This document shows, piece after piece, positions 6,703 through 60,794 of a DNA stretch of 64,000 bases. How positions within the stretch are numbered: position 1 is the first letter of the stretch; each line of letters starts with the position of its first letter. The notes under the pieces were generated by a model. The model had not been told where the DNA came from. It searched no databases and saw only the letters and a list, made by a program, of their open reading frames with translations. The stretch covers positions 3,900 through 67,899 of the forward strand of contig CAZHFC010000016.1 in assembly GCA_964531985.1 (NCBI GenBank). Direction: 5' to 3'. Made by a program: the position numbers and the translations under genes. The DNA comes from an uncultured Bacteroidales bacterium. GTDB lineage: Bacteria > Bacteroidota > Bacteroidia > Bacteroidales > B18-G4.

Positions 6703-8337
6703 ATGGCAAGGAAGTTTTTCCCTTATTTATTGTTCATATTGCCGCTTGCCTTTTCATGCAAGAGATATGCAGACCCTCCTGAACACACCGTGTTCCGCTA
6801 CAATGAGGCGGCAGGCATCAGCTCCCTTGATCCGGCCTTTGCAAGGGATCTTGCCAACCTGTGGGTATGCAACCAACTTTATGACGGGTTGGTATCGCTC
6901 GACGAGAAGCTGCAGATCAAACCTGCCGTTGCACACTCATGGCAAATTTCCGACGACGGCAAAACCTATTCTTTTTTCCTGAGGGACGATGTGTACTTTC
7001 ATGATCATGAGGTTTTTGAAGGAGGCAAAGGGAGGAGGGTCACCGCACACGATTTTGTCTATTCCTTTTACAGGATCTCCGATCCAAGGACTGCATCGCC
7101 CGGTGCCTGGGTCTTCAGTCACGTGGCCGACAGCGGTTTTTCGGCAGTGAACGACACCCTGTTCCAGATCAGGTTGAAATATCCCTTCATGCCCTTCCCG
7201 GGTCTGCTCACCACCCAGTACTGCAATGCCGTTCCGCGCGAAGCCGTCGAAAAGTATGGGCGTGATTTCAGGAGCCACCCCATCGGCTGCGGCCCTTTTC
7301 AATTTCAATACTGGAAAGAGGGCGTGAAGCTGGTACTGCGCAAGAACCCCGTCTATTACCTCTTTGATGATGACGGAAGGCGGCTTCCATACCTGGAGTC
7401 GGTTAGTATATCCTTCCTGATCGACAAACAATCTGCCTTTCTGCAGTTCATACAGGGCAAACTGGATTTTATGTCGGGGATTGATGCAAGCTACAAGGAT
7501 GAATTGCTCACTCCCGACGGGCAACTGCATCCGGCTTACCGCGACCGCATCAGGCTGACAACCCAGCCATATCTCAATACAGAATACCTGGGTATACTGG
7601 TTGATACAAGCCAGGAAAAGCTAAGGGGGAACCCACTGGCCGATAAGCGCATCCGGCAAGCCATCAGCTACGGCTTCGACCGCCGGAAGATGATGCGCTT
7701 CCTGAGGAACAATATCGGGATACCCGGAAGGGGAGGGTTCATCCCGGCAGGCATGCCCGCTTTTGATACCGGCTTTTCCTATGGCTATTCCCATGATCCC
7801 GACAGGGCATCGCAACTACTCCGCGAAGCCGGTTTTCCCGATGGGGAAGGGCTTGAAGCCATCACCCTGACCACTTCAGCCGAGTACCTTGACCTGTGCA
7901 AATATATACAGCATGAACTGGGCTTATTGGGGATCCCGATAAAGATCAGTGTCAGCCCGCCCGCCGCCATCAGGGAAATGCGCGCCCAGGCAAAGATCCC
8001 ATTCTTCAGGGCATCATGGGTAGCCGACTATCCCGATGAAGAGAATTACCTCTCACTCTTTACAAGCACGAATTTCTGCCCCGCAGGGCCAAACTACACA
8101 CGCTTCAGCAACGCCCTGTACGACAGCCTGTACACCACCGCCCTTGGAGTGACCGATGATGATGCCCGGCACACCATTTACCGGGCCATGGACAGCCTGC
8201 TTATGAAGGAGGCTCCCGTGGTGATCCTATACTATGACGAAGTATTGCGATTTACGCAGAACAAGGTCAGGGGACTGGGCAGCAACCCTGTTAACCTGCT
8301 CGACCTCACTTCTGTCAGCAAGGAGGAGCGGGAATAG
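6703..8337 (+). CDS. ABC transporter substrate-binding protein, family 5 (peptide/nickel type), lipoprotein
   Basis: Signal peptide plus lipobox (LPLAFSCK) and SBP_bac_5-like core motifs. No permease or ATPase genes are adjacent. The ATG at 6703 was chosen because the longer ORF would read through the terminator at 6597-6630. Confidence 0.85.
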   Translation: MARKFFPYLLFILPLAFSCKRYADPPEHTVFRYNEAAGISSLDPAFARDLANLWVCNQLYDGLVSLDEKLQIKPAVAHSWQISDDGKTYSFFLRDDVYFHDHEVFEGGKGRRVTAHDFVYSFYRISDPRTASPGAWVFSHVADSGFSAVNDTLFQIRLKYPFMPFPGLLTTQYCNAVPREAVEKYGRDFRSHPIGCGPFQFQYWKEGVKLVLRKNPVYYLFDDDGRRLPYLESVSISFLIDKQSAFLQFIQGKLDFMSGIDASYKDELLTPDGQLHPAYRDRIRLTTQPYLNTEYLGILVDTSQEKLRGNPLADKRIRQAISYGFDRRKMMRFLRNNIGIPGRGGFIPAGMPAFDTGFSYGYSHDPDRASQLLREAGFPDGEGLEAITLTTSAEYLDLCKYIQHELGLLGIPIKISVSPPAAIREMRAQAKIPFFRASWVADYPDEENYLSLFTSTNFCPAGPNYTRFSNALYDSLYTTALGVTDDDARHTIYRAMDSLLMKEAPVVILYYDEVLRFTQNKVRGLGSNPVNLLDLTSVSKEERE

Positions 8338-30628: not shown

Positions 30629-31777
30629 ATGAAAAAATTGATCATCCTGCTTTTCGCCATCGCGATGGTTTCAGGCCTGCAGGCACAAAACTCGAAACGG
30701 ACAAGTGCATTCAACTACCTCAATAACGGGGTACTAGACAAGGCCAAGGAATATATTGACCCGACCATCACCCACGAAAAGACCATGAACGTTGCGAAAA
30801 CATGGTTCTACAGGGGCAATATCTACCTGCAGATCGCACTGAGCGACAATCCCGAATACCGCGCACTTGACCCCAACGCTTTGTATGTTGCCTATGAATC
30901 GTATAAGAAGTGCCTGGAATTGGACGACAGGGGAGAATACACTGATTTTGTTTACCAGAACTTCCGGGTGATCGCCTCCAACTATTTTAACCAGGGTGTT
31001 GCCGCATATAACCAAAGTGCCTATACGGATGCTTCACAGTTTTTCCTCAACACCTACAATATTTCCAAAGATTTTGGTGTTACTGATACCCTGGCCTTGT
31101 CAAATGCAGCGCTATCCTATGACATCGCCGGCGAATCCGGGAAAGCCCTTCCCATATACCTTCAGCTTATTGAGATGGGGTATAAGGATCCCATCGTTTA
31201 CAATGCCGTTGCCAACATCTATCTCAACCAGAACGATACCACGCTGACCGAAAAGTACCTGGTCGAAGGCAGGGCAGCATTTCCCGAAGATTACCAGTTG
31301 CTCATCACCGAAACGAACCTGTTTCTTTCCAGGGGGGAAAATGAAAAGGCCATCGACAACCTTTTACAGGCGCTTGAAACCGATCCGATGAACAAAACCA
31401 TCTGGTTCGCCCTGGGCACGAATTATGAAAACACCGGCAACATTGACCAGGCCGAGGCAGCCTACCAGAAGTGCCTCGACATCGACCCTGACTACGCCGA
31501 TGCCTATTACAATATGGGCGCCATGTACAACAACCAGGCTGCCGAGATCATGGAAGTTGCCAATGAACTGCCGCTTGATGCAGTGAAGGAATATGACGAA
31601 GCAAAGGCCCGCGCCGACACCCTGCTCGAAAAAGCGCTTCCTTACCTCGAGAAATCCGATGAGCTGAACCCCGGCAATCTTGCCACGCTGCAAACACTGA
31701 AACAGATCTATACCATCCTGAACCAACTCGAAAAGTTACAGGAAATAAACGATAAGATAAAAGAGATCACTCAATGA
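30629..31777 (+). CDS. Secreted tetratricopeptide (TPR) repeat protein
   Basis: Signal peptide (MKKLIILLFAIAMVSGLQAQ) and several TPR-like repeats (for example AEAAYQKCLDIDPDYADAYYNMGAMY). Confidence 0.75.
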   Translation: MKKLIILLFAIAMVSGLQAQNSKRTSAFNYLNNGVLDKAKEYIDPTITHEKTMNVAKTWFYRGNIYLQIALSDNPEYRALDPNALYVAYESYKKCLELDDRGEYTDFVYQNFRVIASNYFNQGVAAYNQSAYTDASQFFLNTYNISKDFGVTDTLALSNAALSYDIAGESGKALPIYLQLIEMGYKDPIVYNAVANIYLNQNDTTLTEKYLVEGRAAFPEDYQLLITETNLFLSRGENEKAIDNLLQALETDPMNKTIWFALGTNYENTGNIDQAEAAYQKCLDIDPDYADAYYNMGAMYNNQAAEIMEVANELPLDAVKEYDEAKARADTLLEKALPYLEKSDELNPGNLATLQTLKQIYTILNQLEKLQEINDKIKEITQ

Positions 31778-31881
31778 TATCTTAAAGGCGATCACAGCCT
31801 GCACCAAAGGAGGGAAGATGTAGTTTTTCTCTCCTTTGATTTAAAAGGGCTATTTAACATAATATTAATTATGAGACAATA

Positions 31882-32518
31882 ACAGCAAATTCCGTAATAC
31901 GAAGTATTTAACATAAAACCAGTTATCGGGACGAAGTCCGATAACGACAGGTTTTATGTTAAGGAATTTGCTGTGATCACCACCATAATACGAAGCAATC
32001 AAAATAAAACCGGTTATCGGGACGCAGTCCGGTAACGGCAGGTTTTATGTTCAGGAATTTGCTGTGACCATCGCCCCAATATGCAGTATTCAATTAAACA
32101 GTCTAACCGGACGCAGTCCGATAACGACAGGTTTTATGTTAAGGAATTTGCTGTGATCATCACCATAATACGAAGCATTTAAAATAAAACCGGTTATCGT
32201 GACGCAGTCCGATAACGACAGGTTTTATGTTAAGGAATTTGCTGTGATCATCACCATAATACGAAGCATTTAAAATAAAACCGGTTATCGTGACGCAGTC
32301 CGGTAACGACAGGTTTTATGTTAAGGAATTTGTTGTGATCATCACCATAATACGAAGCAATCAAAATAAAACCGGTTATCGTGACGCAGTCCGGTAACGG
32401 CAGGTTTTATGTTCAGGAATTTGCTGTGATCACCACCATAATACGAAGCAATCAAAATAAAACCGGTTATCGGGACGCAGTCCGGTAACGGCAGGTTTTA
32501 TGTTAAGGAATTTGCTTT
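31882..32518 (+). repeat. Tandem array of seven ~91-bp units, each with a ~50-nt imperfect hairpin (candidate structured-RNA or terminator-like array)
   Basis: The anchor word ggaatttg recurs at 31963, 32054, 32143, 32234, 32325, 32416 and 32507, giving periods of 91, 89, 91, 91, 91 and 91. Each unit contains acataaaacc-N-gttatcgggac-gca-gtccgrtaac-N-ggttttatgt. An inverted copy of the anchor (acagcaaattcc) sits at 31882-31893. No ORF of 60 aa or more exists on either strand. Confidence 0.9.
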
Positions 32519-32600
32519 GCCGTAATGACTCCGCAAATCCTTTCTCCCACAAAAGATCAACACCTTATCACTTCATTCAAAGGAAGTAATCTCCGCAGGA

Positions 32601-33506
32601 ATGAATAATTTTATTAATTTCGAAAAAAACAATCCAATCATGAGTACATTCCTGGATCATTTAAAAAGCCTCATCAATCTGAAGCTGATAGAAACCGAAT
32701 CATTCACATTATCGGTATCTAACATACTGATCGCGATCCTGGTTGTGATCATTACAATATTTTTCCTCAGGGGACTGAAGAAAGTTTTTAAAAGGCTGGC
32801 CAAAAGGGATGTTCTCGATCAGGGCACATCCCATTCACTCTTCCTGATCGTTAAATACCTGATATGGGTCATTATTATCGTAGTGCTGATCGACAGCATG
32901 GGATTAAAAGTTTCCATACTGATTGCCAGCACAGCAGCCCTGCTTGTTGGTGTGGGATTGGGTTTACAGGAGCTTTTCAAGGACGTTGCCAGCGGCATCA
33001 TCCTTCTGGTTGAACGTACCGTTAAAGTGAATGATGTTGTGGAACTGGACAATGAGATGATCGGACGGGTGGTTTCCATCGGTCTCCGGACCTCAAAAAT
33101 CAAGACCCGCGACAATGTGATCACGATCATCCCAAACTCCATGCTGGTAAACGACCAAGTCGTTAACTGGTCGCATATTGAAGACAGAACCCGCTTTCAC
33201 GTAGAGGTGGGTGTAAAATACGGAAGTGACCTGGACCTGGTGACCCGGGTGCTGCTTGATTGCGCCAAAGGGCATCCGGGGATCATTGCCGATCCGGAGC
33301 CAACTGTAAGATTTGTGGATTTCGGGGAGTCAAGCCTTGATTTTCAGCTTTTTTTCTGGACAATTGAAACTTTCAGGGTAGAGAAAATCAAAAGTGACCT
33401 TCGTTATTTAATCGATAAGGCCTTCAGGGAGAATAATATAGAAATCCCTTTCCCCCAAAGGGATCTCTATCTGAAAAGCACACCTGACAGTAATCAAAAA
33501 TCATAA
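32601..33506 (+). CDS. Mechanosensitive ion channel family protein (MscS-like)
   Basis: Three TM helices followed by the MscS beta-domain pattern (VKVNDVVELDNEMIGRVVSIGLRTSKIKTRDNVITIIPNS..NWS). The start could also be the Met at 32640. Confidence 0.85.
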   Translation: MNNFINFEKNNPIMSTFLDHLKSLINLKLIETESFTLSVSNILIAILVVIITIFFLRGLKKVFKRLAKRDVLDQGTSHSLFLIVKYLIWVIIIVVLIDSMGLKVSILIASTAALLVGVGLGLQELFKDVASGIILLVERTVKVNDVVELDNEMIGRVVSIGLRTSKIKTRDNVITIIPNSMLVNDQVVNWSHIEDRTRFHVEVGVKYGSDLDLVTRVLLDCAKGHPGIIADPEPTVRFVDFGESSLDFQLFFWTIETFRVEKIKSDLRYLIDKAFRENNIEIPFPQRDLYLKSTPDSNQKS

Positions 33507-46991: not shown

Positions 46992-47063
46992 AGTTGAATT
47001 GATTGAATTGGTTAAATCAGTTGAATCAGTTAAATCGGTTGAATCGGTTGAATTTGTTGATAG
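46992..47063. repeat. Eight tandem 9-bp units (NNGTTRAAT) abutting the repressor start codon
   Basis: The units read agttgaatt gattgaatt ggttaaatc agttgaatc agttaaatc ggttgaatc ggttgaatt tgttgatag. The ORF-track N-terminal extension (STDSTDLTDSTDL) is just this repeat translated. Confidence 0.75.
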
Positions 47064-48564: not shown

Positions 48565-51507
48565 TTGTACTATAACTGCCACACATACTACAGCCTCCGC
48601 TACGGTACCCTTTCGCCGGAGGAGCTGGTGAAGCTGGCCAAAAGCAAGGGCCTCGAGATGCTGGGCATCGCCGACATCAACAACTCCACGGGGGTGATCG
48701 ACTTCGTGAAGGCTTGTAAGGCGGAAGGTGTCCGCCCGGTGGCGGGAATGGAATTCCGCAACGGGAACAAATACCTGTACACCGGCATTGCGCGCAACAA
48801 CGAAGGTTTCAGGGAGCTGAACGAGTTTCTGTCGGAGCACCGCCTGGAGAAAAAGGAGCTTCCCGCCAGGGCACCCGTATTGCCCAACTGCTACGTGGTA
48901 TATCCTTTCGGGGGGGCGTATCCCGGCAGGCTTGCCGGTCATGAATATGTCGGCATAGGCCCCGGCGAAGCGGGCAGGCTCCTCTCCTCCCCGCTTCGGA
49001 GCAGGCAGTCGAAGCTGCTCTTGCACCACCCGGTAAGCTTTGCCGGAAGCAGCGGCTACGAGCTGCACCGCCACCTGTGTGCCATTGGCAATAACACCCT
49101 GCTCTCGAAGCTCACCCCGCTGATGACGGCCGCCGCCAATGAGTCTTTCCTGCCCGAAGATGATGTGCTGAAGGCTTTTGAGCATTATCCCGACATCCTG
49201 AGGAATACCGAAAGGATGATGGCCGATTGCCATGTCGAATTCGATTTTCATTCCATCAGGAACAAGAAAACCTTTACGGGAAGTGTTTACGATGACAAGC
49301 TGCTTTTGGAGAAGCTGGCGATAGACGGACTGGAGTACCGCTATGGCAAGAATAACCGCGAAGCGGAAGAAAGGGTCAGGCACGAACTTGGCCTGATCAC
49401 CCGCCTGGGCTTTGCGGCCTACTTTCTCATCACCTGGGACATCATCCGCTATTCCATGTCGCGCGGCTTCTATCATGTGGGCCGTGGTAGCGGGGCCAAC
49501 AGTGTAGTGGCTTATTGCCTGAAGATCACGAATGTTGACCCTGTCGAATTAAACCTTTACTTTGAACGATTCATCAACCCGCGCAGGAGCAGCCCCCCCG
49601 ATTTCGACATCGACTATTCCTGGCGGGAACGGGATGAGGTACAGGACTATATCTTTAAGCGTTACGGGCGGAGACATACGGCCCTGCTCGGGGCCATGTC
49701 GACCTTCAGGGGGCGTTCGATATACAGGGAACTGGGCAAGGTTTACGGGCTTCCCAAGGCCGGGATCGACCTGTTGGTGCACCATCCCGGCCACCCGGAA
49801 GCAAAGGACCACATTACTGAAAAGATCCATTCCCTGGCGGGGATGATGGCCGGTTTTCCCAACCTGCGCAGCATCCATGCCGGCGGCATCCTCATCTCCG
49901 AAGAGCCCATCTGCTGTTATACCGCCCTGGATATGCCTCCCAAGGGCTTTCCCACCACGCAGTGGGACATGTACGTGGCCGAGGACATTGGCTTTGAGAA
50001 GCTCGACATCCTCAGCCAGCGGGGTATCGGGCATATCAGGGAATGTGCCGGCATTGTGAGGGAAAACAGGGGCGTCGGCGTGGATATTCACCGGGTGGAA
50101 GTGTTCAAGAAGGACGAAAAAGTAAAGGAGCTTTTGCGCCGGGGCGAGACCAACGGCTGCTTTTACGTGGAAAGCCCTGCCATGCGGGGGCTGCTGAAAA
50201 AACTGCGCTGCGACGACTACCTGCGGCTGGTGGCGGCCAGCTCCATCATCCGGCCGGGCGTGGCCCGCTCGGGCATGATGCGCGAATACATCCGCCGTTT
50301 CCATCACCCGAACGATTTTGAATACATCCACCCCGTGATGAAGGACCAACTGCAAGAGACCTTCGGGGTAATGGTGTACCAGGAAGATGTGCTCAAGGTG
50401 TGCCATCACTTTGCCGGCCTCGACCTGAGTGATGCCGATGTGCTGCGCAGGGCCATGAGCGGCAAGTTCAGGAGCAGGAAGGAGTTCGACAGGATCGTAC
50501 GGAAGTTTTTCAGTAACTGCCGGGAATATGGCTATCCGGAGGCGGTAACCAGCGAAGTGTGGCGGCAGATCGAAAGCTTTGCCGGGTATTCCTTCTCCAA
50601 GGCCCATTCTGCCTCCTATGCCGTGGAAAGCTTCCAGAGCCTCTACCTCAAGGCCCATTATCCGCTGGAGTTTATGGTGGCTGTAATCAATAACTTCGGG
50701 GGATTTTTCCCGCAATGGGTGTATTTCAATGAAGCCCGTCGCCGGGGAGGGGAAATCATGCTGCCCTGCGTGAACCACAGCAACTACAAGACCTGCATCA
50801 GGGGGAAACGGATATATATGGGTTTTATCCACATCGACAAGCTTGAAAGGGCGTTGGGGAAGGGCATCGCAGACGAACGCGGGCGGAACGGCCCTTATGC
50901 TTCGCTTGAAGATTTTATCCGCCGCATGCCTGTGGGCGCCGAACAACTGGTGTTGCTCATCAGGGTTGGGGCATTCGGTTTTACGGGCAGGAAAAAGCCG
51001 GAACTGCTCTGGGAAGCCTGCCTGCACCACGGCAAGGGCCGCAAGTCCGGGGCCGGCCCTACCCTTTTCGCGGCAGGGATGAAAAACTATGAACTCCCGC
51101 AACTGGAATGCAGCAAGGCGGAAGATGCCTATGACGAAATCGAGCTATGCGGCTTCCCACTGAGCATGAGCTGGTTCGAGCTGCTGCAACAACCCGCGAA
51201 CGGGATCTTGCGGGCTGCAGAAATGATGAAATTCGTGGGGCGGAAGGCTCAGATGGCCGGACTGCTGGTTACCGTGAAGTATGTGCGTACCGTGAAGAAA
51301 GAGATCATGAACTTTGCCGCCTTCCTCGACGACAAGGGTGAATTTTTCGACAGCGTGCACTTTCCCGAAAGCCTGAAGCAATACCCTTTCCGCGGAAACG
51401 GAGTTTACCTGCTGTATGGCAGGATCGTGGAAGAGTTTGGGTTTCCGGGCATTGAAGTTGATCGGATGTTAAAACTTCCACTTAAGGCTGATCCACGAGC
51501 TGTTTGA
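48565..51507 (+). CDS. dnaE2: Error-prone DNA polymerase III alpha-subunit paralogue (DnaE2-like, 980 aa)
   Basis: The order is a PHP domain (CHTYYSLRYG..GIADINN), the pol III alpha palm/fingers (VGRGSGANSVVAYCL, PDFDIDY, FEKLDILSQRG, FSKAHSASYA), then an OB fold. The protein is short and directly follows dinB. The start is an apparent TTG. Confidence 0.85.
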   Translation: MYYNCHTYYSLRYGTLSPEELVKLAKSKGLEMLGIADINNSTGVIDFVKACKAEGVRPVAGMEFRNGNKYLYTGIARNNEGFRELNEFLSEHRLEKKELPARAPVLPNCYVVYPFGGAYPGRLAGHEYVGIGPGEAGRLLSSPLRSRQSKLLLHHPVSFAGSSGYELHRHLCAIGNNTLLSKLTPLMTAAANESFLPEDDVLKAFEHYPDILRNTERMMADCHVEFDFHSIRNKKTFTGSVYDDKLLLEKLAIDGLEYRYGKNNREAEERVRHELGLITRLGFAAYFLITWDIIRYSMSRGFYHVGRGSGANSVVAYCLKITNVDPVELNLYFERFINPRRSSPPDFDIDYSWRERDEVQDYIFKRYGRRHTALLGAMSTFRGRSIYRELGKVYGLPKAGIDLLVHHPGHPEAKDHITEKIHSLAGMMAGFPNLRSIHAGGILISEEPICCYTALDMPPKGFPTTQWDMYVAEDIGFEKLDILSQRGIGHIRECAGIVRENRGVGVDIHRVEVFKKDEKVKELLRRGETNGCFYVESPAMRGLLKKLRCDDYLRLVAASSIIRPGVARSGMMREYIRRFHHPNDFEYIHPVMKDQLQETFGVMVYQEDVLKVCHHFAGLDLSDADVLRRAMSGKFRSRKEFDRIVRKFFSNCREYGYPEAVTSEVWRQIESFAGYSFSKAHSASYAVESFQSLYLKAHYPLEFMVAVINNFGGFFPQWVYFNEARRRGGEIMLPCVNHSNYKTCIRGKRIYMGFIHIDKLERALGKGIADERGRNGPYASLEDFIRRMPVGAEQLVLLIRVGAFGFTGRKKPELLWEACLHHGKGRKSGAGPTLFAAGMKNYELPQLECSKAEDAYDEIELCGFPLSMSWFELLQQPANGILRAAEMMKFVGRKAQMAGLLVTVKYVRTVKKEIMNFAAFLDDKGEFFDSVHFPESLKQYPFRGNGVYLLYGRIVEEFGFPGIEVDRMLKLPLKADPRAV

Positions 51508-51545
51508 ATTCTGAAATCTGATATTTGAATTCTGAATTCTGAAGT
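51506..51545. repeat. Left 40-bp inverted repeat bracketing the four-helix-bundle gene
   Basis: The sequence is gaattctgaaatctgatatttgaattctgaattctgaagt. Its reverse complement matches 51971-52010 at 39 of 40 positions. It overlaps the dnaE2 stop codon. Confidence 0.9.
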
Positions 51546-51970: not shown

Positions 51971-52010
51971 ACTTCAGAATTCAGAATTCAAATATCAGAT
52001 TTCAGATTTC
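51971..52010. repeat. Right 40-bp inverted repeat bracketing the four-helix-bundle gene
   Basis: The sequence is acttcagaattcagaattcaaatatcagatttcagatttc. It ends 1 bp before the stop codon of the convergent SRAP gene. Confidence 0.9.
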
Positions 52011-54231: not shown

Positions 54232-56850
54232 TTATTGCTTTATGATCTTCTTTACGATGGTTTGATTTTCAAGATTTATCCTCACGAAATAGATCCCTGC
54301 AGGAAGATGGCTGATGTTGAGTTCCAGTGTTCCAGCCCCCACCCCCGGCCCTTCCCCCAACTGGTGGAAGGGAGAAATTGCAACCGGTTTACCATACAAA
54401 TCCACCACTTCAACCTGTAATTTTGAATTTTGAATTTTAAATTTGGAATTTGTTTGGTGCTTGGAATTTGTAATTTGGAATTTCCCCCGGGTCGGGTTGG
54501 GGTATAGCAAAACATCTGCCCCGGTTGCCGGATTTTTTTCAAAGACACCGGCGTTTGGAACCAATGGTCCGTATTTCAGCAATACCTTGTTGCCGCCTGC
54601 ATAGCCTTCGTTTTGTGATGTGAAAAATACCGAAACCAGGCTCATCCCGTCTGCAAAACCCGGTGCATCATCGAACCAGTTATGTCCACCATCTTGGGAA
54701 TGCCAGATCACTTCTCCTCCAACTATCCAACCTTCAGTGGAATTGATAAAAAATACGTCCTGCAGTAATTTATCAGACAACCCGCTTTGCTGGCTATGAA
54801 GCCATTCGATCCCATCAATGGTATAATTGATCAATCCATAACCCCCCACTGCCCAGCCTGTAATATTATCATTAAAAAATAGTGAATTGCGACCATCGGT
54901 ACTGCTATAAAATTGAAGATTGTTCCAAGTATTCTCTTTGTACTTGCCAATATATACTTCTCCCAATACTTTACCTTCACTGTTATCTTCCGGAAAACAG
55001 ATTGATTGTAAATTCACTGAAACACCCGTTGGTGAAATATCCGTAATGCCTGCATCATCAAATGACCAGACGGTTCCGTTGGCACCACAGGTATATCCGG
55101 TGTCGGAGTCTGGAGGAAAATGAACAGAATTCAACACGCCACCGGGTTCGTGCAGCATGGACCAGTTTGTGCCGCCATTTTCTGTCTTGACAATTTTACC
55201 GCTAAAAGTCACCACATACCCTTCCAGGTTGTTTTTCATAAAAATGGAGGAAGTGATACCGGAGTTTTCCGGAAGGGCCTGGATTTGAAAGGTCTCACCT
55301 CCGTCGGGTGTGTAATACACCCGGTCATTTCCTCCGGCCAGCCATCCTTCCTGTCCGATAAAATGCAAATCGTGTATTGATAAGTATTCAGACGTGTGAT
55401 TTGTGATATTCTGCCATCCGTGAGTGGCGGTCATGGTGGCGGTAAAGTCCTGAGTGATCGTCTGGCCGGAAAGGTTTATCGTCGCTGATACCGGACTGAA
55501 TTCGTAGTAGATCTTCTCAGGGGTGACGATGTAATTCCCCGGGGGCATGTAATCAAAAAAATATTCACCGGTTTCGGAGGTCTTTACCGTGGCATTGACA
55601 GGGCCTTCAATTTTCAGCAATACATCCTGAAGGGGACCGCCATTGATCAATACCTTTCCTTGTATGGATCCTGAAGGCAGGGGATCATCATCATGTCTTA
55701 CGGGCCATATTCGCGATAATCCAGGGTCTTCTTTAAGCAATTCAAGAGTTACATCCACTAGTGTGATATTCACGGCATGTACACTTAAAGTTGCATGGGC
55801 CGCGGTAGTTGAGGTCCAGTATCTTCCTGCGGGTGGAGTAAATGGATTGTTTGGGGGAAGGTATGTGAACAGGTAATTTCCGCCGAAATGCCTTAATGAC
55901 AGGATCTCGTGCCTGTTGGGCAGGCGCCAGTCGTTGTATCCGCAATAATTCATATTGTTCAGCGAGTCGAGATATGCAAAAGCCTGGGTCCATGTTATTT
56001 CATCATCCCAATTGGTTCCTGTCAATCCAAATAAATCTAATGGATCCGAATTTTGAGTCCACATCAGGCCGGTCAGACGGTCGGTAACGGTGCTGTCGTT
56101 GTGGTCGATGAACCGGGGGGTAGGCCAGGAAACGCCCAGGTCGAGGTCTTTGTCATCGCCGGGGTATAAACTGAGTTCCTGTGAAGTTTTGGGAAGTTCG
56201 ATCAGTCCGATCCCATGCTCGCCTCTCACCGGCAGCACATACACTTTTCTTTTATCGGCATAGATCTCGGGAAGGATCTTTCTGAACCACAACACCTGCC
56301 CCGGCCAGAATTTTGAATTGGAATGGATCTCCCACTGATACATCCCGACTGCAAAAGCAATGCCTTTATCATCTCCGGAAGACGAGCTCCAGTAAACTTG
56401 CTGGATATTCACAAAAGGATGGTTTTCCCCAAGTGCCGTATCCGGCCTGCCGAGGTCGAGAAGGGAGGTCAGCTCCATGATATTGGGCAGGCGCCAGTCG
56501 TCGTGGCCCAGGTAATTCTCATTATTCAGTTTTGCCACGTAATCCAGAGCCGTGGTCCAGTTGACCGAGCCGTCGCCGACGTCGTAGTCCTGGTCGAAGT
56601 CCGGGTCGCGCATCGCCATGATATTCCCTTCCGTTGCCCAGATGAGGCCTGTCAGGGCATCGGTACAGGTGCCGTTCCCGTGGTTGGTAAATCGCTGCGT
56701 CGGCCAGTGCACACCATTTTGCAGGTCACCGTCGTCGCCAGTGTGGTAGCTGGTAAGCTGGCCGGTGGCGGGGAGCTCAATCGTGCCCTGCTGGCTGAAT
56801 GCTGTCAGGCTGATCAGGCTTAAAGAAGTCAGTAGAAATAGATGCTTCAT
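54232..56850 (-). CDS. Multidomain T9SS cargo: two DUF1566 (Lcl C-terminal-like) domains, a CarboxypepD_reg-like domain, a BNR/Ycf48-like beta-propeller and a sorting domain
   Basis: Signal peptide. DWRLPN..EL.SL occurs twice (HDDWRLPNIMELTSL, YNDWRLPNRHEILSL). The region GSIQGKVLING..GNYIVTP follows. Propeller blades are repeated (TPDGGETF, TENGGTNW, SQDGGHNW). The C-terminus reads YPNPTRGKFQI...AGIYFVRI...KKIIKQ. Confidence 0.75.
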   Translation of the reverse strand: MKHLFLLTSLSLISLTAFSQQGTIELPATGQLTSYHTGDDGDLQNGVHWPTQRFTNHGNGTCTDALTGLIWATEGNIMAMRDPDFDQDYDVGDGSVNWTTALDYVAKLNNENYLGHDDWRLPNIMELTSLLDLGRPDTALGENHPFVNIQQVYWSSSSGDDKGIAFAVGMYQWEIHSNSKFWPGQVLWFRKILPEIYADKRKVYVLPVRGEHGIGLIELPKTSQELSLYPGDDKDLDLGVSWPTPRFIDHNDSTVTDRLTGLMWTQNSDPLDLFGLTGTNWDDEITWTQAFAYLDSLNNMNYCGYNDWRLPNRHEILSLRHFGGNYLFTYLPPNNPFTPPAGRYWTSTTAAHATLSVHAVNITLVDVTLELLKEDPGLSRIWPVRHDDDPLPSGSIQGKVLINGGPLQDVLLKIEGPVNATVKTSETGEYFFDYMPPGNYIVTPEKIYYEFSPVSATINLSGQTITQDFTATMTATHGWQNITNHTSEYLSIHDLHFIGQEGWLAGGNDRVYYTPDGGETFQIQALPENSGITSSIFMKNNLEGYVVTFSGKIVKTENGGTNWSMLHEPGGVLNSVHFPPDSDTGYTCGANGTVWSFDDAGITDISPTGVSVNLQSICFPEDNSEGKVLGEVYIGKYKENTWNNLQFYSSTDGRNSLFFNDNITGWAVGGYGLINYTIDGIEWLHSQQSGLSDKLLQDVFFINSTEGWIVGGEVIWHSQDGGHNWFDDAPGFADGMSLVSVFFTSQNEGYAGGNKVLLKYGPLVPNAGVFEKNPATGADVLLYPNPTRGKFQITNSKHQTNSKFKIQNSKLQVEVVDLYGKPVAISPFHQLGEGPGVGAGTLELNISHLPAGIYFVRINLENQTIVKKIIKQ

Positions 56851-56948
56851 AGCGTTTTATTTTTTTGTTACCGGCTACCGGTTACAGGAAGTCTGATATC
56901 TGATGTTTGATATCTGAAGTCTGAAATTAATCCATAATCCATAATTTA

Positions 56949-57216
56949 TCATCCAAAATCATAGCTTAATGATCTTCCGCACTCCAACCCCATCCTCAGT
57001 CTGCAGCTTCACCAGGTATAGTCCCGACGGCAAATGGCTTACATCAACAATTATCTCTGACTCTCTGACTCCCGAATTCTTGTATTCATAAACTACCCTT
57101 CCGTACAGGTCAACAATCTTCAGTTTTGAGTTTTGCCCCTCGACTCCGCTCGGGATGACATTGGTGCCGGGTGCCGAGTGCCGAATACTTATTTTATCCC
57201 GGCAGGGATTGGGGTA
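56949..57216. repeat. 268-bp perfect direct repeat, copy 1 (3' end of a T9SS cargo gene plus 10 bp downstream)
   Basis: By my base-by-base reading it is identical to 58304-58571. It encodes the same 85-aa sorting domain, YPNPCRDKISI...VRKIIKL. Confidence 0.95.
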
Positions 57217-58179
57217 AACCTCGAACTCCAGATTCTGGATATTATCTCCGATTCCTGAAATTTCGGTGTATTTTAATAAGGTTTTGCCAATTCCAACTGC
57301 ATAACCATTGGTTGGGGAAGTGAAGTGGATGCCGAGTAATGTATTTGTCGTTAGCCCATCTGCCTCAATTGTCCAGGTTGTCCCGCCATTAATGGTATGC
57401 AGAATCCTTCCGCCGCTGTTAATTGCCCAGCCCTGATTGGTATTTAAAAAATAAACCTTAATAAGGGTATGATTCTGCGGGTCAGGATTTGTTTGCTCAA
57501 ACCAGTTTTTCCCGTCTGTTGTAAGGGCGATAATACCTCCATCACCTACAACCCAACCATTTAATGAATCGACCATGTAAATTGCATTGTATCCACCACT
57601 CGGGTAATCCTGGTCGGCGGCTGTCCAGGTTCCATTGATAAAATGTCTAATAATACTTCCTCCACAAACCCAACCTTCAGAACTATTAACAGGGAAACTA
57701 ATACCAGTTTGCGTGTCAGGAACTCCGCTGTTCATTTTAGTTACACCAGTACTATGGATCATCCAAATATTCCCGTTTAATCCGCAACAATAGCCTGTAT
57801 CTCCTGCAGGGGGAAAAGAAATATCTGCCAGAGTTGTTGACATTGTTCCATGAAAATCCCAGTGTTCGCCACCATCGGTTGTTTTGTAAATAAAACCACT
57901 GGCACCTCCGGCGTAGCCTACATTGGCATTTAACATATGGATGGCATTACAAGTATATAAAGTGGTTTGCACCTCAAAAGTCTGTCCTCCATCGGTGGTG
58001 TGGTATATTTCGGCTATTGAACTACTTGTAATCCAGCCTTCATCGTCGGAAACAAAGAACACATCCGTCAAGTTGGGAGTGCCGGGGAGGTTAGCGCTGA
58101 TGTCTTTCCAGCCGTATTGCTGGCTGCTGGCGCCAAGGCTTATCGCGGTTAAAAAAATGATTGCAAATAGTTTCTTCAT
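56959..58179 (-). CDS. BNR/Ycf48-like beta-propeller protein with T9SS C-terminal sorting domain
   Basis: Signal peptide, repeated blades (TTDGGQTF, TTDGGEHW, TTDGKNW, TINGGTTW), and a sorting domain identical to that of the next gene. Confidence 0.75.
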   Translation of the reverse strand: MKKLFAIIFLTAISLGASSQQYGWKDISANLPGTPNLTDVFFVSDDEGWITSSSIAEIYHTTDGGQTFEVQTTLYTCNAIHMLNANVGYAGGASGFIYKTTDGGEHWDFHGTMSTTLADISFPPAGDTGYCCGLNGNIWMIHSTGVTKMNSGVPDTQTGISFPVNSSEGWVCGGSIIRHFINGTWTAADQDYPSGGYNAIYMVDSLNGWVVGDGGIIALTTDGKNWFEQTNPDPQNHTLIKVYFLNTNQGWAINSGGRILHTINGGTTWTIEADGLTTNTLLGIHFTSPTNGYAVGIGKTLLKYTEISGIGDNIQNLEFEVYPNPCRDKISIRHSAPGTNVIPSGVEGQNSKLKIVDLYGRVVYEYKNSGVRESEIIVDVSHLPSGLYLVKLQTEDGVGVRKIIKL

Positions 58180-58303: not shown

Positions 58304-58571
58304 TCATCCAAAATCATAGCTTAATGATCTTCCGCACTCCAACCCCATCCTCAGTCTGCAGCTTCACCAGGTATAGTCCCGACGGCAAATGGCTTACATC
58401 AACAATTATCTCTGACTCTCTGACTCCCGAATTCTTGTATTCATAAACTACCCTTCCGTACAGGTCAACAATCTTCAGTTTTGAGTTTTGCCCCTCGACT
58501 CCGCTCGGGATGACATTGGTGCCGGGTGCCGAGTGCCGAATACTTATTTTATCCCGGCAGGGATTGGGGTA
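58304..58571. repeat. 268-bp perfect direct repeat, copy 2
   Basis: Identical to 56949-57216. Identity breaks at ggggta|a versus ggggta|t on one side and at a|tcatcc versus t|tcatcc on the other. Confidence 0.95.
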
Positions 58572-60794
58572 TACGGCAAAATCGATCTCCTGCACGGGCT
58601 CCTCTATCCCCAGGTTCCCTTTCTTGACCAAAATACCGACACTTTCCTTGGTTCCCGTCTCACAGGTGAAGCTTCCGTACCAGTCGGATGTTACAGGAAC
58701 CAGCCACCTGAGCACCTGCGATGTCTCCCCGTCGAAATCATCCGAATCGAGGATGGCATCATCGTAATACCACTGGTAGGTTTCCGACTGGACCACGGCA
58801 TCAAATTTCACTATGCTCTCAATTGGTTTGTCGTCGATCAGTTCGATGTATTGTTCATTGCTGACATAAACATGCGTTAGGTGATTGACCCATTGCCCGT
58901 TATTGGTGATATTGCCGTTAATGTACAGGAAGAGATATTCACCTCCGTAGTTATCCATGATCACCCCGTGGTTGACCACACTCCCATCTACGGGCAGATG
59001 ATAATGCTTGGCTCCTCCCCCGTATGCATTTGGCATCAGGGTATCGCCTATGGTTACCGGCCCTTCGAATGAAACGCTGTCATCGACAAAAACCCGATCA
59101 TACACTTCCAGTCCGTTGATGCAATCAAGATATTGCAGGTAACCACCGTGCAGTTTTGCATGATCCAATATGCCGTTGTGCAGCCAGCCTCCCATTGTGA
59201 GGGACTTGCCTTTCATATCCAGGATTGCACCTCCCAGGTCAAAATCACCGGAAAAACCAAGGTCGCCCGTGAGTGTGCTCAGGTCATTATTGCTTTCAAG
59301 GTTGATAAACTTGCTTTCGAAGACGCAGCCCTGGTCCTGGTACAGGCTTTGAAACTGGGTCCCGTTGAGCACGGTTTCAGTATTTTTCCACACTCCCCGG
59401 TTTTCCAGGTTGCCGGAAATATGAAGTCGCAGCATATCACCAGGGTTGATGTCGCGCACGACCCCTTCATTCCTGAAATTACCATCGACAAAAAGGTCGA
59501 AATACTTGCTTCCGCCGCCGTATACATTCGACTGCAGGGTGTCGATCACCAGCACATCGTTCAGGAAGAGGTTGCCGTCGTCGCAGGTCACCGACCCGTA
59601 GATCTTCAGGGCATCCAGGCTGGTCAGGTTCTGTATGTATGCATTTTTCAGCAAACAGTTGTCGATATAGCCATTATACAGCCATCCTTCCACCCGGAGC
59701 ATCATGTTCTCCATGTAGAGCGTCGCTCTTCCCAGGTTGAAATCCTGTAATATGGAGATGTCGCTGTTGGCGCGTATGCTGCTGGTCGAATCGAGATCGG
59801 AAAAATAGGAGTCAAAAACCATTCCGTTGGCCTGGGTGATACTTTGCTCCTGCTCCCCAACCAGCTTAACGTAATAACAGCTCCAATGCCCGTTATTCAC
59901 AATGTCGCCTGTGATGAGGATGCTGAGCCGGTCGTCGTTCTTCTGGTCGTTGTTGTCCCTGATCACCCCGTTGTTGGTCAGGTTTCCCTCTATCAGCAGG
60001 TTTTGAATACCCAGCCCGCCGCCGTATTCATTGTTCTGCAGTGTATCGCTGACCGTGACGTTCCCGACAAACCTGAGCGTATCTGCAGGGCTTTTGTTTA
60101 CGGCAAACCTGCCCTTGATGAAGAAGTTGCCTTCTATCGTCCCGTTATAGATGAGCGTGCCGGTTGCATCCAGGGAATGGCTACCCATATGCAGGGTCGA
60201 ACCTCCCAGGTTGAAATCCATGACGTTCGTATTATTGGTAAAAAAAATACAGTCGAATTTCAGGTCGCTGTCGGCATAGATATCGCATGGGGCCGTGCAT
60301 TCCCATACACCTCCGAAGACACTTCCCTGACCCTGGCTTATATGCTGGCCGTTACCGGTCAGCAAGGTCTTTTCAGGCCTCCAGCTTCCATCATTATAGA
60401 TATTACCGTTTATGTTCAGCTGAAGGTATTCATAGTCATCAGGTATGGTGCCGCAATGTATCATCCCGTGATTTGTAAAATCATGGGCAACATGAAGGAT
60501 AAATGTCCCCAGCCCGCCGCCATATTCGTGGGGTTGCAATGAGCCGCCCGTTTCAACGATTACCCATCCGCCAACACTGTGGTGAATTTCATAACCAATA
60601 ACATGACCTATGATCACCGGGCCATGGATAACCGCCGTATCGCTTTGTCCGGGTATAACACCACCTATCCATGTCGACTCATTATTCCATTTTCCGCCAG
60701 TAGTTGTTGAATGAATGGTATTTGCCAGCGTGGAAGCGCTGAAAAATACAATGGCAAGCAAAGCCAATGTCTTTAATGTAATAATATTTCTCAT
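58314..60794 (-). CDS. Large T9SS cargo protein built from four ~167-aa internal repeats
   Basis: Signal peptide. The motif E/V/A-YGGG followed by x10-12, N.G and V/I recurs at about aa 91, 257, 425 and 591. The C-terminus is the duplicated sorting domain. Confidence 0.75.
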   Translation of the reverse strand: MRNIITLKTLALLAIVFFSASTLANTIHSTTTGGKWNNESTWIGGVIPGQSDTAVIHGPVIIGHVIGYEIHHSVGGWVIVETGGSLQPHEYGGGLGTFILHVAHDFTNHGMIHCGTIPDDYEYLQLNINGNIYNDGSWRPEKTLLTGNGQHISQGQGSVFGGVWECTAPCDIYADSDLKFDCIFFTNNTNVMDFNLGGSTLHMGSHSLDATGTLIYNGTIEGNFFIKGRFAVNKSPADTLRFVGNVTVSDTLQNNEYGGGLGIQNLLIEGNLTNNGVIRDNNDQKNDDRLSILITGDIVNNGHWSCYYVKLVGEQEQSITQANGMVFDSYFSDLDSTSSIRANSDISILQDFNLGRATLYMENMMLRVEGWLYNGYIDNCLLKNAYIQNLTSLDALKIYGSVTCDDGNLFLNDVLVIDTLQSNVYGGGSKYFDLFVDGNFRNEGVVRDINPGDMLRLHISGNLENRGVWKNTETVLNGTQFQSLYQDQGCVFESKFINLESNNDLSTLTGDLGFSGDFDLGGAILDMKGKSLTMGGWLHNGILDHAKLHGGYLQYLDCINGLEVYDRVFVDDSVSFEGPVTIGDTLMPNAYGGGAKHYHLPVDGSVVNHGVIMDNYGGEYLFLYINGNITNNGQWVNHLTHVYVSNEQYIELIDDKPIESIVKFDAVVQSETYQWYYDDAILDSDDFDGETSQVLRWLVPVTSDWYGSFTCETGTKESVGILVKKGNLGIEEPVQEIDFAVYPNPCRDKISIRHSAPGTNVIPSGVEGQNSKLKIVDLYGRVVYEYKNSGVRESEIIVDVSHLPSGLYLVKLQTEDGVGVRKIIKL

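Follow-up and report, generated by a model that had tools for sequence, protein, structure and literature searches.

A tandem array of forked hairpins beside a predicted chromosomal dif site in an uncultured Bacteroidales bacterium, with a possible link to Xer recombination

Results

The locus and its tandem array

The stretch of DNA analysed here, called the window throughout, comprises 64,000 nucleotides of contig CAZHFC010000016.1 (assembly GCA_964531985.1) from an uncultured Bacteroidales bacterium, and near its centre a tandem array of hairpin-forming units adjoins a predicted dif site for XerC/XerD recombination. A tetratricopeptide-repeat (TPR) gene on the plus strand (30629–31777; Pfam TPR families) is followed by a terminator-like hairpin and T-run (31809–31838, plus strand; GGAGGGAA...TTCTCTCC TTTG, read from the sequence), by the putative dif (31852–31879), by the array (31882–32518) and, outside the element, by a plus-strand gene for an mscS-type channel (32640–33506; Pfam MS_channel domains). 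The 382-aa TPR product has an exact copy in three other assemblies. The hairpin that ends its gene was not called by the consensus terminator scan because its loop is 10 nt long; an equivalent GC hairpin stands ahead of dif at many related loci.

Tandem Repeats Finder reported one strong tandem array, at 31895–32516 (period 91, 6.9 copies, 89% matches, 0 indels), and splitting at the word AGGAATTTG gave units of 80, 91, 89, 91, 91, 91 and 91 nt with a partial eighth. As bounded in the window, at 31882–32518, the array is non-coding and has one long hairpin per unit: no open reading frame (ORF) of 60 aa or more overlaps it, and the only overlapping ones are minus-strand ORFs of 40–45 aa. The hairpin core matched six times, every time inside the array, and the rest of the 64 kb had no match (0 expected by chance); an exact search for this core in the species-genome set also returned 0. 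A first-pass annotation of this DNA had described a tandem, non-coding array of ~91-bp hairpin units, which the repeat search, the ORF list and the core matches confirm, and had rightly set aside a CRISPR array, since the segments between hairpins are conserved and are not unique spacers. The 6-codon mini-ORF that it placed in every 3' arm is present in six units.

A putative dif site directly upstream

The 28-bp sequence two bases upstream of the array reads ATTTAACATAA-TATTAA-TTATGAGACAA on the plus strand. In the canonical orientation, which lies on the minus strand, it becomes TTGTCTCATAA-TTAATA-TTATGTTAAAT, that is, XerC arm, 6-nt centre and XerD arm, the 11 + 6 + 11 nt layout of dif with its conserved XerD arm and palindromic inner arms. 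Escherichia coli MG1655 has GGTGCGCATAA-TGTATA-TTATGTTAAAT adjoining hipA, which is the dif of that strain; against it, the window site is identical at 11 of 11 positions of the XerD arm and at 21 of 28 overall. Nearly the same sequence has been predicted as dif in other Bacteroidetes, namely Pedobacter heparinus (TAGTCACATAATTAATATTATGTTAAGT) and Cytophaga hutchinsonii (TTGTTATATAATTTACATTATGTTAAAT; PMC3025954, supplement 2), and xerC and xerD homologues have been reported in this group (PMC3091885).

Among relatives gathered by way of the left-hand TPR protein, the 28-nt word just 5' of unit 1 was kept even where the proteins were only 46% identical. A scan with the dif motif TTAACATAATATNNATTATNNGACA, one genome per species, matched more than 120 contigs, each of them once and most of them from Bacteroidota, with many orders represented; a close variant also occurs in Proteobacteria and other phyla, and the sequence on either side is unrelated between genomes. 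A TPR homologue was found within 2.5 kb to the left of the motif in 62 of 118 loci, usually 46–200 nt away, and in 45 of those 62 gyrA lies beyond it, so that gyrA-TPR-dif synteny makes the TPR gene a conserved left neighbour. The site in the window is single-copy over 64 kb, intergenic and conserved in position. Long ORFs also converge on it (left, 15 plus and 6 minus; right, 6 plus and 14 minus; Fisher p = 0.013). On these grounds 31852–31879 is taken to be the chromosomal dif, as far as sequence allows. An earlier idea that the 28-nt "leader" is the end of a transposon or insertion sequence (TGTCC...) was dropped because of the gyrA-TPR synteny and the match to dif.

Unit 1 as an intact, forked module

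Unit 1 (31882–31974, plus strand) begins two bases past the XerC arm of dif and is the only intact copy of what we describe as a Y-shaped module. It folds with a minimum free energy (MFE) of -40.9 kcal/mol, better than its shuffles (z = -5.5), and scores 94.1 bits with the covariance model described below. An outer stem, P1, is formed by a 5' strand (31882–31893) and a 3' strand (31963–31974), and encloses a small hairpin, P1a (AATAC-GAA-GTATT, 31894–31907), and a long one, P2-P3 (31908–31962). The first-pass annotation had noted that ACAGCAAATTCC at 31882 and GGAATTTGCTGT at 31963 enclose the first hairpin, and the two do pair in the MFE fold; it had overlooked that dif stands two bases upstream and that XerD-arm words lie on both arms. 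Its reading as a whole is partly supported.

The 5' arm of hairpin 1 contains a second dif-like site (31906–31933, plus strand), ATTTAACATAA-AACCAG-TTATCGGGACG, in direct orientation with respect to dif. Compared with the window dif it is identical at 11/11 positions of the XerD arm, 5/11 of the XerC arm and 2/6 of the centre, its 6-nt spacer being AACCAG where dif has TATTAA. The 3' arm carries the XerD-arm word inverted, TTATGTTAA at 31954–31962, with a 9-nt spacer. The hairpin is therefore built of two inverted dif-like arms, ATTTAACATAA-AACCAG-TTATCGG on the 5' side and CCGATAA-CGACAGGTT-TTATGTTAA on the 3' side, and folds as an attP(+) of the type found in phage CTX would.

Thirteen other species genomes show this layout after dif; they belong to Bacteroidales with one Flavobacteriales and one Mariniphaga, and all 14 sequences adopt one Y-shaped fold (MFE -34 to -50 kcal/mol) with outer stem, small hairpin and long hairpin. 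An internal loop with 1 nt in the 5' strand and 4–6 nt in the 3' strand interrupts the long hairpin, and the module has an A-tract/stem/T-tract symmetry. In a MAFFT alignment of the 14 genomes, 98.2% of stem cells in P2 and P3 are paired and 10 of 20 pairs are doubly changed in a compensatory manner (27 cells). None of 500 shuffles reached such pairing measures, and sliding the partner by 1–3 columns left 36–48% paired, in agreement with the first-pass proposal that the hairpin is selected for pairing. P1 has nine different sequences, each with 7–14 complementary pairs; because the MAFFT alignment of P1 is out of register, its covariation was tabulated from each sequence's own pairing, a procedure that favours the finding of pairs. 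The invariant columns of the alignment are ACATAA, TTATGTTAA and CAG; the XerD-arm word is therefore kept on both arms, and the rest of the stem varies as long as it pairs. To judge by these patterns, the module is a structured DNA element of ~93 bp with the form of a forked hairpin.

Spread of the module and its tie to Xer-type sites

Within the window, a covariance model derived from these 14 sequences matched only the array (unit 1 at 94 bits, four other units at 49–58 bits), and at 100 Bacteroidota dif loci it recovered the 13 known modules only, all directly beside dif; the other 87 loci lack the module. Weak matches of the model fell on dif-plus-inverted-dif pairs at L127 and L138 (Niabella), where an inverted copy of dif lies 17 nt after dif and another lies further on, an arrangement unlike that of the module.

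For a wider survey we used the pattern TTAACATAANNNCAGN{25,55}TTATGTTAA, which itself contains no dif and returned at least 120 rows in metagenomes and at least 119 in species genomes. A standard dif stood 50–65 nt upstream in 72 of 131 among the metagenome matches listed, a few of these being chance matches, and in 67 of the 90 modules that passed a stem-complementarity filter among the species-genome matches listed. Most of the remaining modules follow a dif-like variant whose spacer is longer (…AAGCTATTTAACATAA-TGCAATTCCA-TTATAGGACAA), are second units of tandem arrays or stand at contig ends. Across Bacteroidota, with carriers among Bacteroidales, Flavobacteriales, Cytophagales and Saprospiraceae, the module has at least 170 sequence variants. 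It almost always lies just past the XerC arm, whether of dif or of a dif-like site, and in many of these bacteria it stands 2–21 nt beyond that of dif. Cultured bacteria that have it include Polaribacter ponticola MSW5, Cyclobacterium qasimii M12-11B and C. xiamenense, and because of these its role is directly testable. The junction word GGTTTTATGTTNANGAATTTG, tried as a probe, found three close relatives only, its other matches lying by chance inside genes; a match in Dysgonomonas mossii (L429) was likewise due to chance.

Several other arrangements of Xer-like sites were seen in passing. At internal cassette junctions a variant Xer-like site with a 9–10-nt spacer, usually after AAGCTAT, replaces dif before modules (L328 4871–4902, L301, L315, L377, L395, L451, L478, L490). 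Inverted dif-like sites, for example TTGTCCTATAA-TTGGACA-TTATATTAAAT followed by AGCCGC, lie downstream of the module at L328 (231–260 and 300–332), L073, L084, L086, L090, L121 and L133; the central hexamer of the first such site in L328, TTAATA, is that of dif. On viral contigs, a generic inverted-XerD-arm pattern gave mostly AT-rich chance matches and some true dif-like pairs; neither it nor two patterns specific to the module retrieved any relative of the module. The IMG/VR contigs L189, L216, L154, L159, L251 and L258 have dense XerD-arm-like words (TTTAACATAAT, ATTATGTTAAA) in both orientations, and in L149 and L231 (~4.1 kb) as well as in L228 (part of a 16-kb contig) a 76-nt stretch combines a dif-like site with an inverted XerD arm. 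No circular contig was seen.

Units 2–7 and copy number

Units 2–7 repeat the P1 3' strand, a 14-nt linker, P1a and the hairpin; they lack the P1 5' strand and any cargo. In unit 2 (31962–32052, plus strand; 48.6 bits) P1a is weakened and the XerD arm of the hairpin is mutated (AATCAAAATAA). Unit 3 (32053–32141, plus strand; 89 nt) has its 5' arm replaced and only the 3' arm intact, with z = +0.35 and no covariance-model match, in keeping with the degenerate 5' arm noted before. Units 4–7 (32142–32505, plus strand) are four 91-nt copies that start at 32142, 32233, 32324 and 32415, three of which score 49–58 bits. The 5' arm reads ACATAAAACC in unit 1 and AAATAAAACC in units 2 and 4–7, and thus the "acataaaacc" consensus given earlier for this arm holds for unit 1 only; the shared, disabling C-to-A change falls in the invariant ACATAA and puts an A opposite the G of GGTTTTATGT. 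P1a is weakened throughout units 2–7, and the tandem units folded singly do no better than shuffles (z -1.0 to -1.7), whereas unit 1 does. The array ends in a partial unit (32506–32540, plus strand) with the P1 3' strand AGGAATTTGC, then CCGTAATGAC and then the inverted GCAAATCC. Judged by their sequences, units 2–7 look like drifting copies of a single progenitor that was already mutated.

An independent assembly from another sample, of a near-identical strain with an identical TPR protein, has two units where the window has seven, so seven is not a set number, although the lower count may reflect collapse of the repeat in short reads. The two are unit 1 and a unit whose body equals that of unit 2 and whose junction equals that of unit 7, which is what an in-register exchange of units 2 and 7 would leave, and the right end of this allele is that of the window array. 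A third assembly ends inside dif, just ahead of the array. Tandem arrays of the module occur in at least seven other, unrelated genomes; L081, L302, L314, L342, L362, L436 and L449 are independent arrays without cargo and with periods of 96–148 nt. In L004, L020 and L081 truncated units end at or near the border between XerC arm and centre of the 3' arm (three cases, judged by eye), where XerC would cut, which fits a recombination model. In a second Bacteroidales metagenome-assembled genome (MAG), L002, a run of N at 7395–7495 hides the middle of a probable array of at least three units, whose linker is unlike that of the window.

Cargo between modules in relatives

In L001, whose TPR protein is 90% identical, dif is followed by two units and by a third that is split by 1.65 kb encoding an EcoO109I-type endonuclease and an N4/N6 methylase. 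The 3' arm, the linker and mscS follow, and this restriction-modification (R-M) pair thus separates the array from mscS. Five contigs have two modules 3–5.4 kb apart, and in four of the five module-bracketed spans examined the cargo is related to defence, either by R-M or by abortive infection (Abi). Between the modules, L328 has a 1003-aa MmeI/Eco57I-type (type IIG R-M) enzyme and a YhcG PDDEXK nuclease; L395, which overlaps and extends L328, has a D12 methylase and two ORFs without an assigned function; L378 has an EcoRII endonuclease, Vsr, a C5 methylase and an S24/HTH repressor; and L358 has Abi_2 with a LytTR two-component pair. The layout is fullest in L328, where dif and module are followed by two inverted dif-like sites, the cargo, a variant direct site and a further module, after which the series repeats, so that inverted site b, cargo and direct variant site are in alternating orientation. 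Identical junction blocks stand at differing positions in L328/L395 and in L378, consistent with a shuffling of cassettes.

The pair of dif-like site and module thus recurs at the borders of horizontally acquired cassettes in relatives. No recombinase gene and no Pfam phage protein family was seen in the annotated cassettes. The right flanks of single modules are diverse and ordinary (145 Pfam families in 136 ORFs), which rules out our earlier notion that the right flank is always a defence island; the enrichment in defence genes is confined to cargo between two modules.

Other repeats in the window

Identical short repeats 1355 bp apart, at 57054–57184 and 58409–58539 (TCTCTGAC x2.2 and GTGCCGA x3), imply a direct duplication of ~1.35 kb across the minus-strand ORFs 56959–58179 and 58314–60794. 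Short tandem repeats of 7–9 nt, in up to 9.7 copies, lie at 46993–47053, 51503–51543, 51973–52010, 54419–54483 and 56888–56960.

Discussion

A possible role in Xer-dependent recombination

Mobile DNA that exploits the host Xer machinery includes Vibrio phages, Neisseria islands and dif modules of Acinetobacter; in Bacteroidetes, such use has so far been inferred only for a few microvirus proviruses. Here, a conserved structured DNA module is tied to dif across several orders of the phylum and borders mostly R-M or Abi cassettes in the cargo-bearing relatives examined. From this association we infer a role for the module in recombination, and the array in the window is an empty, partly decayed form of it. 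The array probably represents a tandem amplification of a dif-flanking forked-hairpin module that serves as a recombination or junction element linked to Xer and dif, a reading we prefer while keeping considerable reserve. The nearest of the roles listed in the first-pass annotation is the "protein-binding platform". Xer might insert cassettes beside dif with the module as their junction or attachment element, in the manner of integrative mobile elements exploiting Xer (IMEX) or of dif modules, and the folded hairpin would present a duplex bound by XerD, like the single-stranded attP of phage CTX. Its differing centre (AACCAG rather than TATTAA) could keep it from recombining with dif itself. 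Tandem copies may have come from unequal exchange between units, or from excised mini-circles that re-inserted into the site of the module itself, and would now be drifting as relics.

A number of observations weigh against this interpretation. No recombination event, excised circle or pair of occupied and empty sites was found for the module, and three scans of IMG/VR viral contigs turned up no phage or single-stranded replicon that carries it. P3, the would-be XerC arm, varies freely in sequence, and sequence-specific binding of XerC there is therefore doubtful. Simple schemes of the CTX type, in which XerC cuts the 3' arm or XerD cuts the 5' arm, fail to give the observed order (perfect dif first, then module), a check that is our own derivation. 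The window array itself has neither cargo nor inverted sites of the L328 kind, and in L298 the genes between the modules are not related to defence. GC skew is flat across the 64 kb (-0.007 versus 0.000), a stretch too short to place the terminus firmly, and gene orientation is what tentatively puts it here.

In a wider and decidedly tentative scenario, which we regard as possible rather than probable, Bacteroidota would possess a Xer-driven, integron-like cassette platform at dif, with the forked hairpin and its XerD arm as folded substrate or junction, at which defence cassettes are inserted, stacked and shuffled; the units in the window would then be empty junctions. If the module is a substrate of Xer, it would explain the exchange of defence genes at the chromosome terminus of Bacteroidota and would be the second natural folded hairpin in Xer recombination, after that of the CTX phage. 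It would also supply a marker, in both sequence and structure, for annotating dif and cassette boundaries in this phylum.

Alternative explanations

The strong covariation in three helices would suit a structured non-coding RNA gene, or a cis-acting RNA, that is read from the plus strand, lies beside dif by chance and is multiplied in copy by the array, but we consider such an RNA unlikely. The earlier argument from plus-strand G-U pairs stands for the 14-genome alignment, where 5 of 5 one-sided changes leave a plus-strand G.U, and becomes weak over 171 distinct hairpins (plus-strand G.T excess of 143 versus 108, p = 0.03); the minus strand folds almost equally well, the plus strand being more stable in 95 of the 171. 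A scan of 31000–33500 with Rfam 15 at permissive E-values gave noise (17–22 bits against gathering thresholds of 40–144), the Bacteroidetes-type promoter box TAnnTTTG is absent from both strands of 31780–32640, and scans for terminators and sigma-70 promoters found nothing on the plus strand of the array. The tail once described as terminator-like is a U-run that pairs with the upstream A-run in the stem, and no canonical terminator accompanies it. The invariant nucleotides are the XerD-arm word on both arms, which an RNA would have no reason to keep, and position and orientation relative to Xer-type sites are fixed even at cassette junctions far from the TPR gene. Seven independent small-RNA genes, as had been suggested, are at odds with the degeneracy of units 2–7 as well as with the lack of an Rfam match and of the promoter box. 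Because there is no promoter box and no Rfam match, and because a protein-binding word lies on both arms, a role at the DNA level is more likely than a transcribed RNA. The proposed link to mscS is refuted: among relatives the right-hand gene varies, and the module keeps its place on the gyrA-TPR-dif side. A terminator or attenuator ahead of mscS is not supported, given the negative plus-strand scan. We infer that the array does not regulate mscS. Neither strand of 32520–32640, between the array and the start of mscS, has a TAnnTTTG box.

The terminal inverted repeats of 7–14 bp, a patchy presence (13 of 100 dif loci) and a position only a few bases from the XerC arm, comparable to the targeting by IS1202-family elements in Acinetobacter (PMC10132070), recall a selfish, non-autonomous element akin to a miniature inverted-repeat transposable element (MITE), with P1 as transposase ends and aimed at the XerC side of dif. 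We hold this to be quite improbable, given that P1 differs in sequence between lineages and yet stays complementary, unlike ends recognised by a transposase, and that the left repeat is missing from the tandem units. Inspection by eye showed no target duplication, and no transposase is associated with the module among the 145 families of its right flanks. It usually occupies one place per fetched contig (two in one MAG) without dispersed copies, and a high-copy dispersed repeat (repetitive extragenic palindrome, bacterial interspersed mosaic element or MITE) is not borne out either, with no copies elsewhere in the 64 kb, a single contig in the L001 genome and a position only beside dif across the 100 loci. 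Equally improbable, in our opinion, is a host terminus element, such as a cruciform or insulator that shields dif or an accessory sequence for Xer/FtsK, whose extra copies are due to neutral slippage. The constant place beside dif, the folding of both strands with their A-tract/stem/T-tract symmetry, and the position after the TPR terminator would all suit such an element; however, 87 of 100 Bacteroidota dif loci do without the module, it also stands at internal cassette junctions beside variant sites, and the terminator scan was negative. That the array is a mis-assembled or inflated repeat is very improbable. A 91-bp tandem repeat is hard for short reads, one assembly stops inside dif, short of the array, and another shows two units, but differences at several positions distinguish the seven units, which can be chained in a single order, the independent assemblies agree exactly on both flanks, and tandem arrays of the same module occur in the unrelated genomes listed above.

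Comparison with known systems

Our search of the full-text literature brought up no account of such a hairpin module next to dif in Bacteroidota, and what comes closest is the report on Bacteroidales Microviridae (BMV) proviruses, which are flanked by dif-like sites; some have an extra dif-like sequence near one end, which its authors compare to the inverted sites of CTX (PMC3091885). The integrase-less elements of the IMEX arrays of Vibrio cholerae (TLC, RS1, CTX, VGJ) and of BMV stack on one side of dif with dif-like direct repeats, as the units do here. Unlike them, the annotated cassettes here have no phage Pfam families, the units are of 91 bp and the module does not appear in PMC3091885. 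IS1202-family elements, whose insertion point lies 5 bp from the XerC arm in both dif and pdif, share the short-distance placement on the XerC side; they are 1.5 kb long and have a transposase (PMC10132070), whereas the 93-bp module is non-coding, with ends that co-vary.

Integron attC arrays, including clusters of attC sites lacking integrases (CALINs), also have serial hairpins, structure kept over sequence, cassettes in between and conserved unpaired bases. The attC reading was rejected, since R' GTTAAGG departs from GTTRRRY at the last position (by reading the sequence); for R'' (RYYYAAC), ATTTAAC of unit 1 fits and units 2–7 read ...AAA instead of ...AAC. Moreover, the conserved word of the module is the XerD arm, and its anchor is dif rather than attI.

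The dif modules of Acinetobacter occur on plasmids and near the chromosomal dif, and consist of cargo between pdif sites that alternate in orientation (PMC6449649, PMC12907356). The Xer-like sites of L328 similarly alternate around cargo, blocks are re-sorted and no recombinase is seen in the cassettes, while the phylum is different, the cargo is R-M or Abi rather than antibiotic resistance, a ~93-bp Y-shaped hairpin stands at each junction, and the window array is made of direct repeats without cargo or alternating sites. To our knowledge, pdif modules have no counterpart of that hairpin. In the attP(+) of phage CTX, two inverted dif-like sites fold in the single-stranded genome, and XerC/D recombine the hairpin with dif (PMC4246890, PMC3442271). 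The module resembles it in that inverted XerD-arm words form a stem with an imperfect, asymmetric centre, in adjoining dif and in its conserved forked fold; it differs in being chromosome-resident, in its variable would-be XerC arm, in the lack of a phage or single-stranded replicon in the viral scans, and in the order of dif and module, which simple CTX integration does not give. The module works most like the CTX attP(+) and the dif modules or IMEX arrays, but departs from each of these in at least one tested feature.

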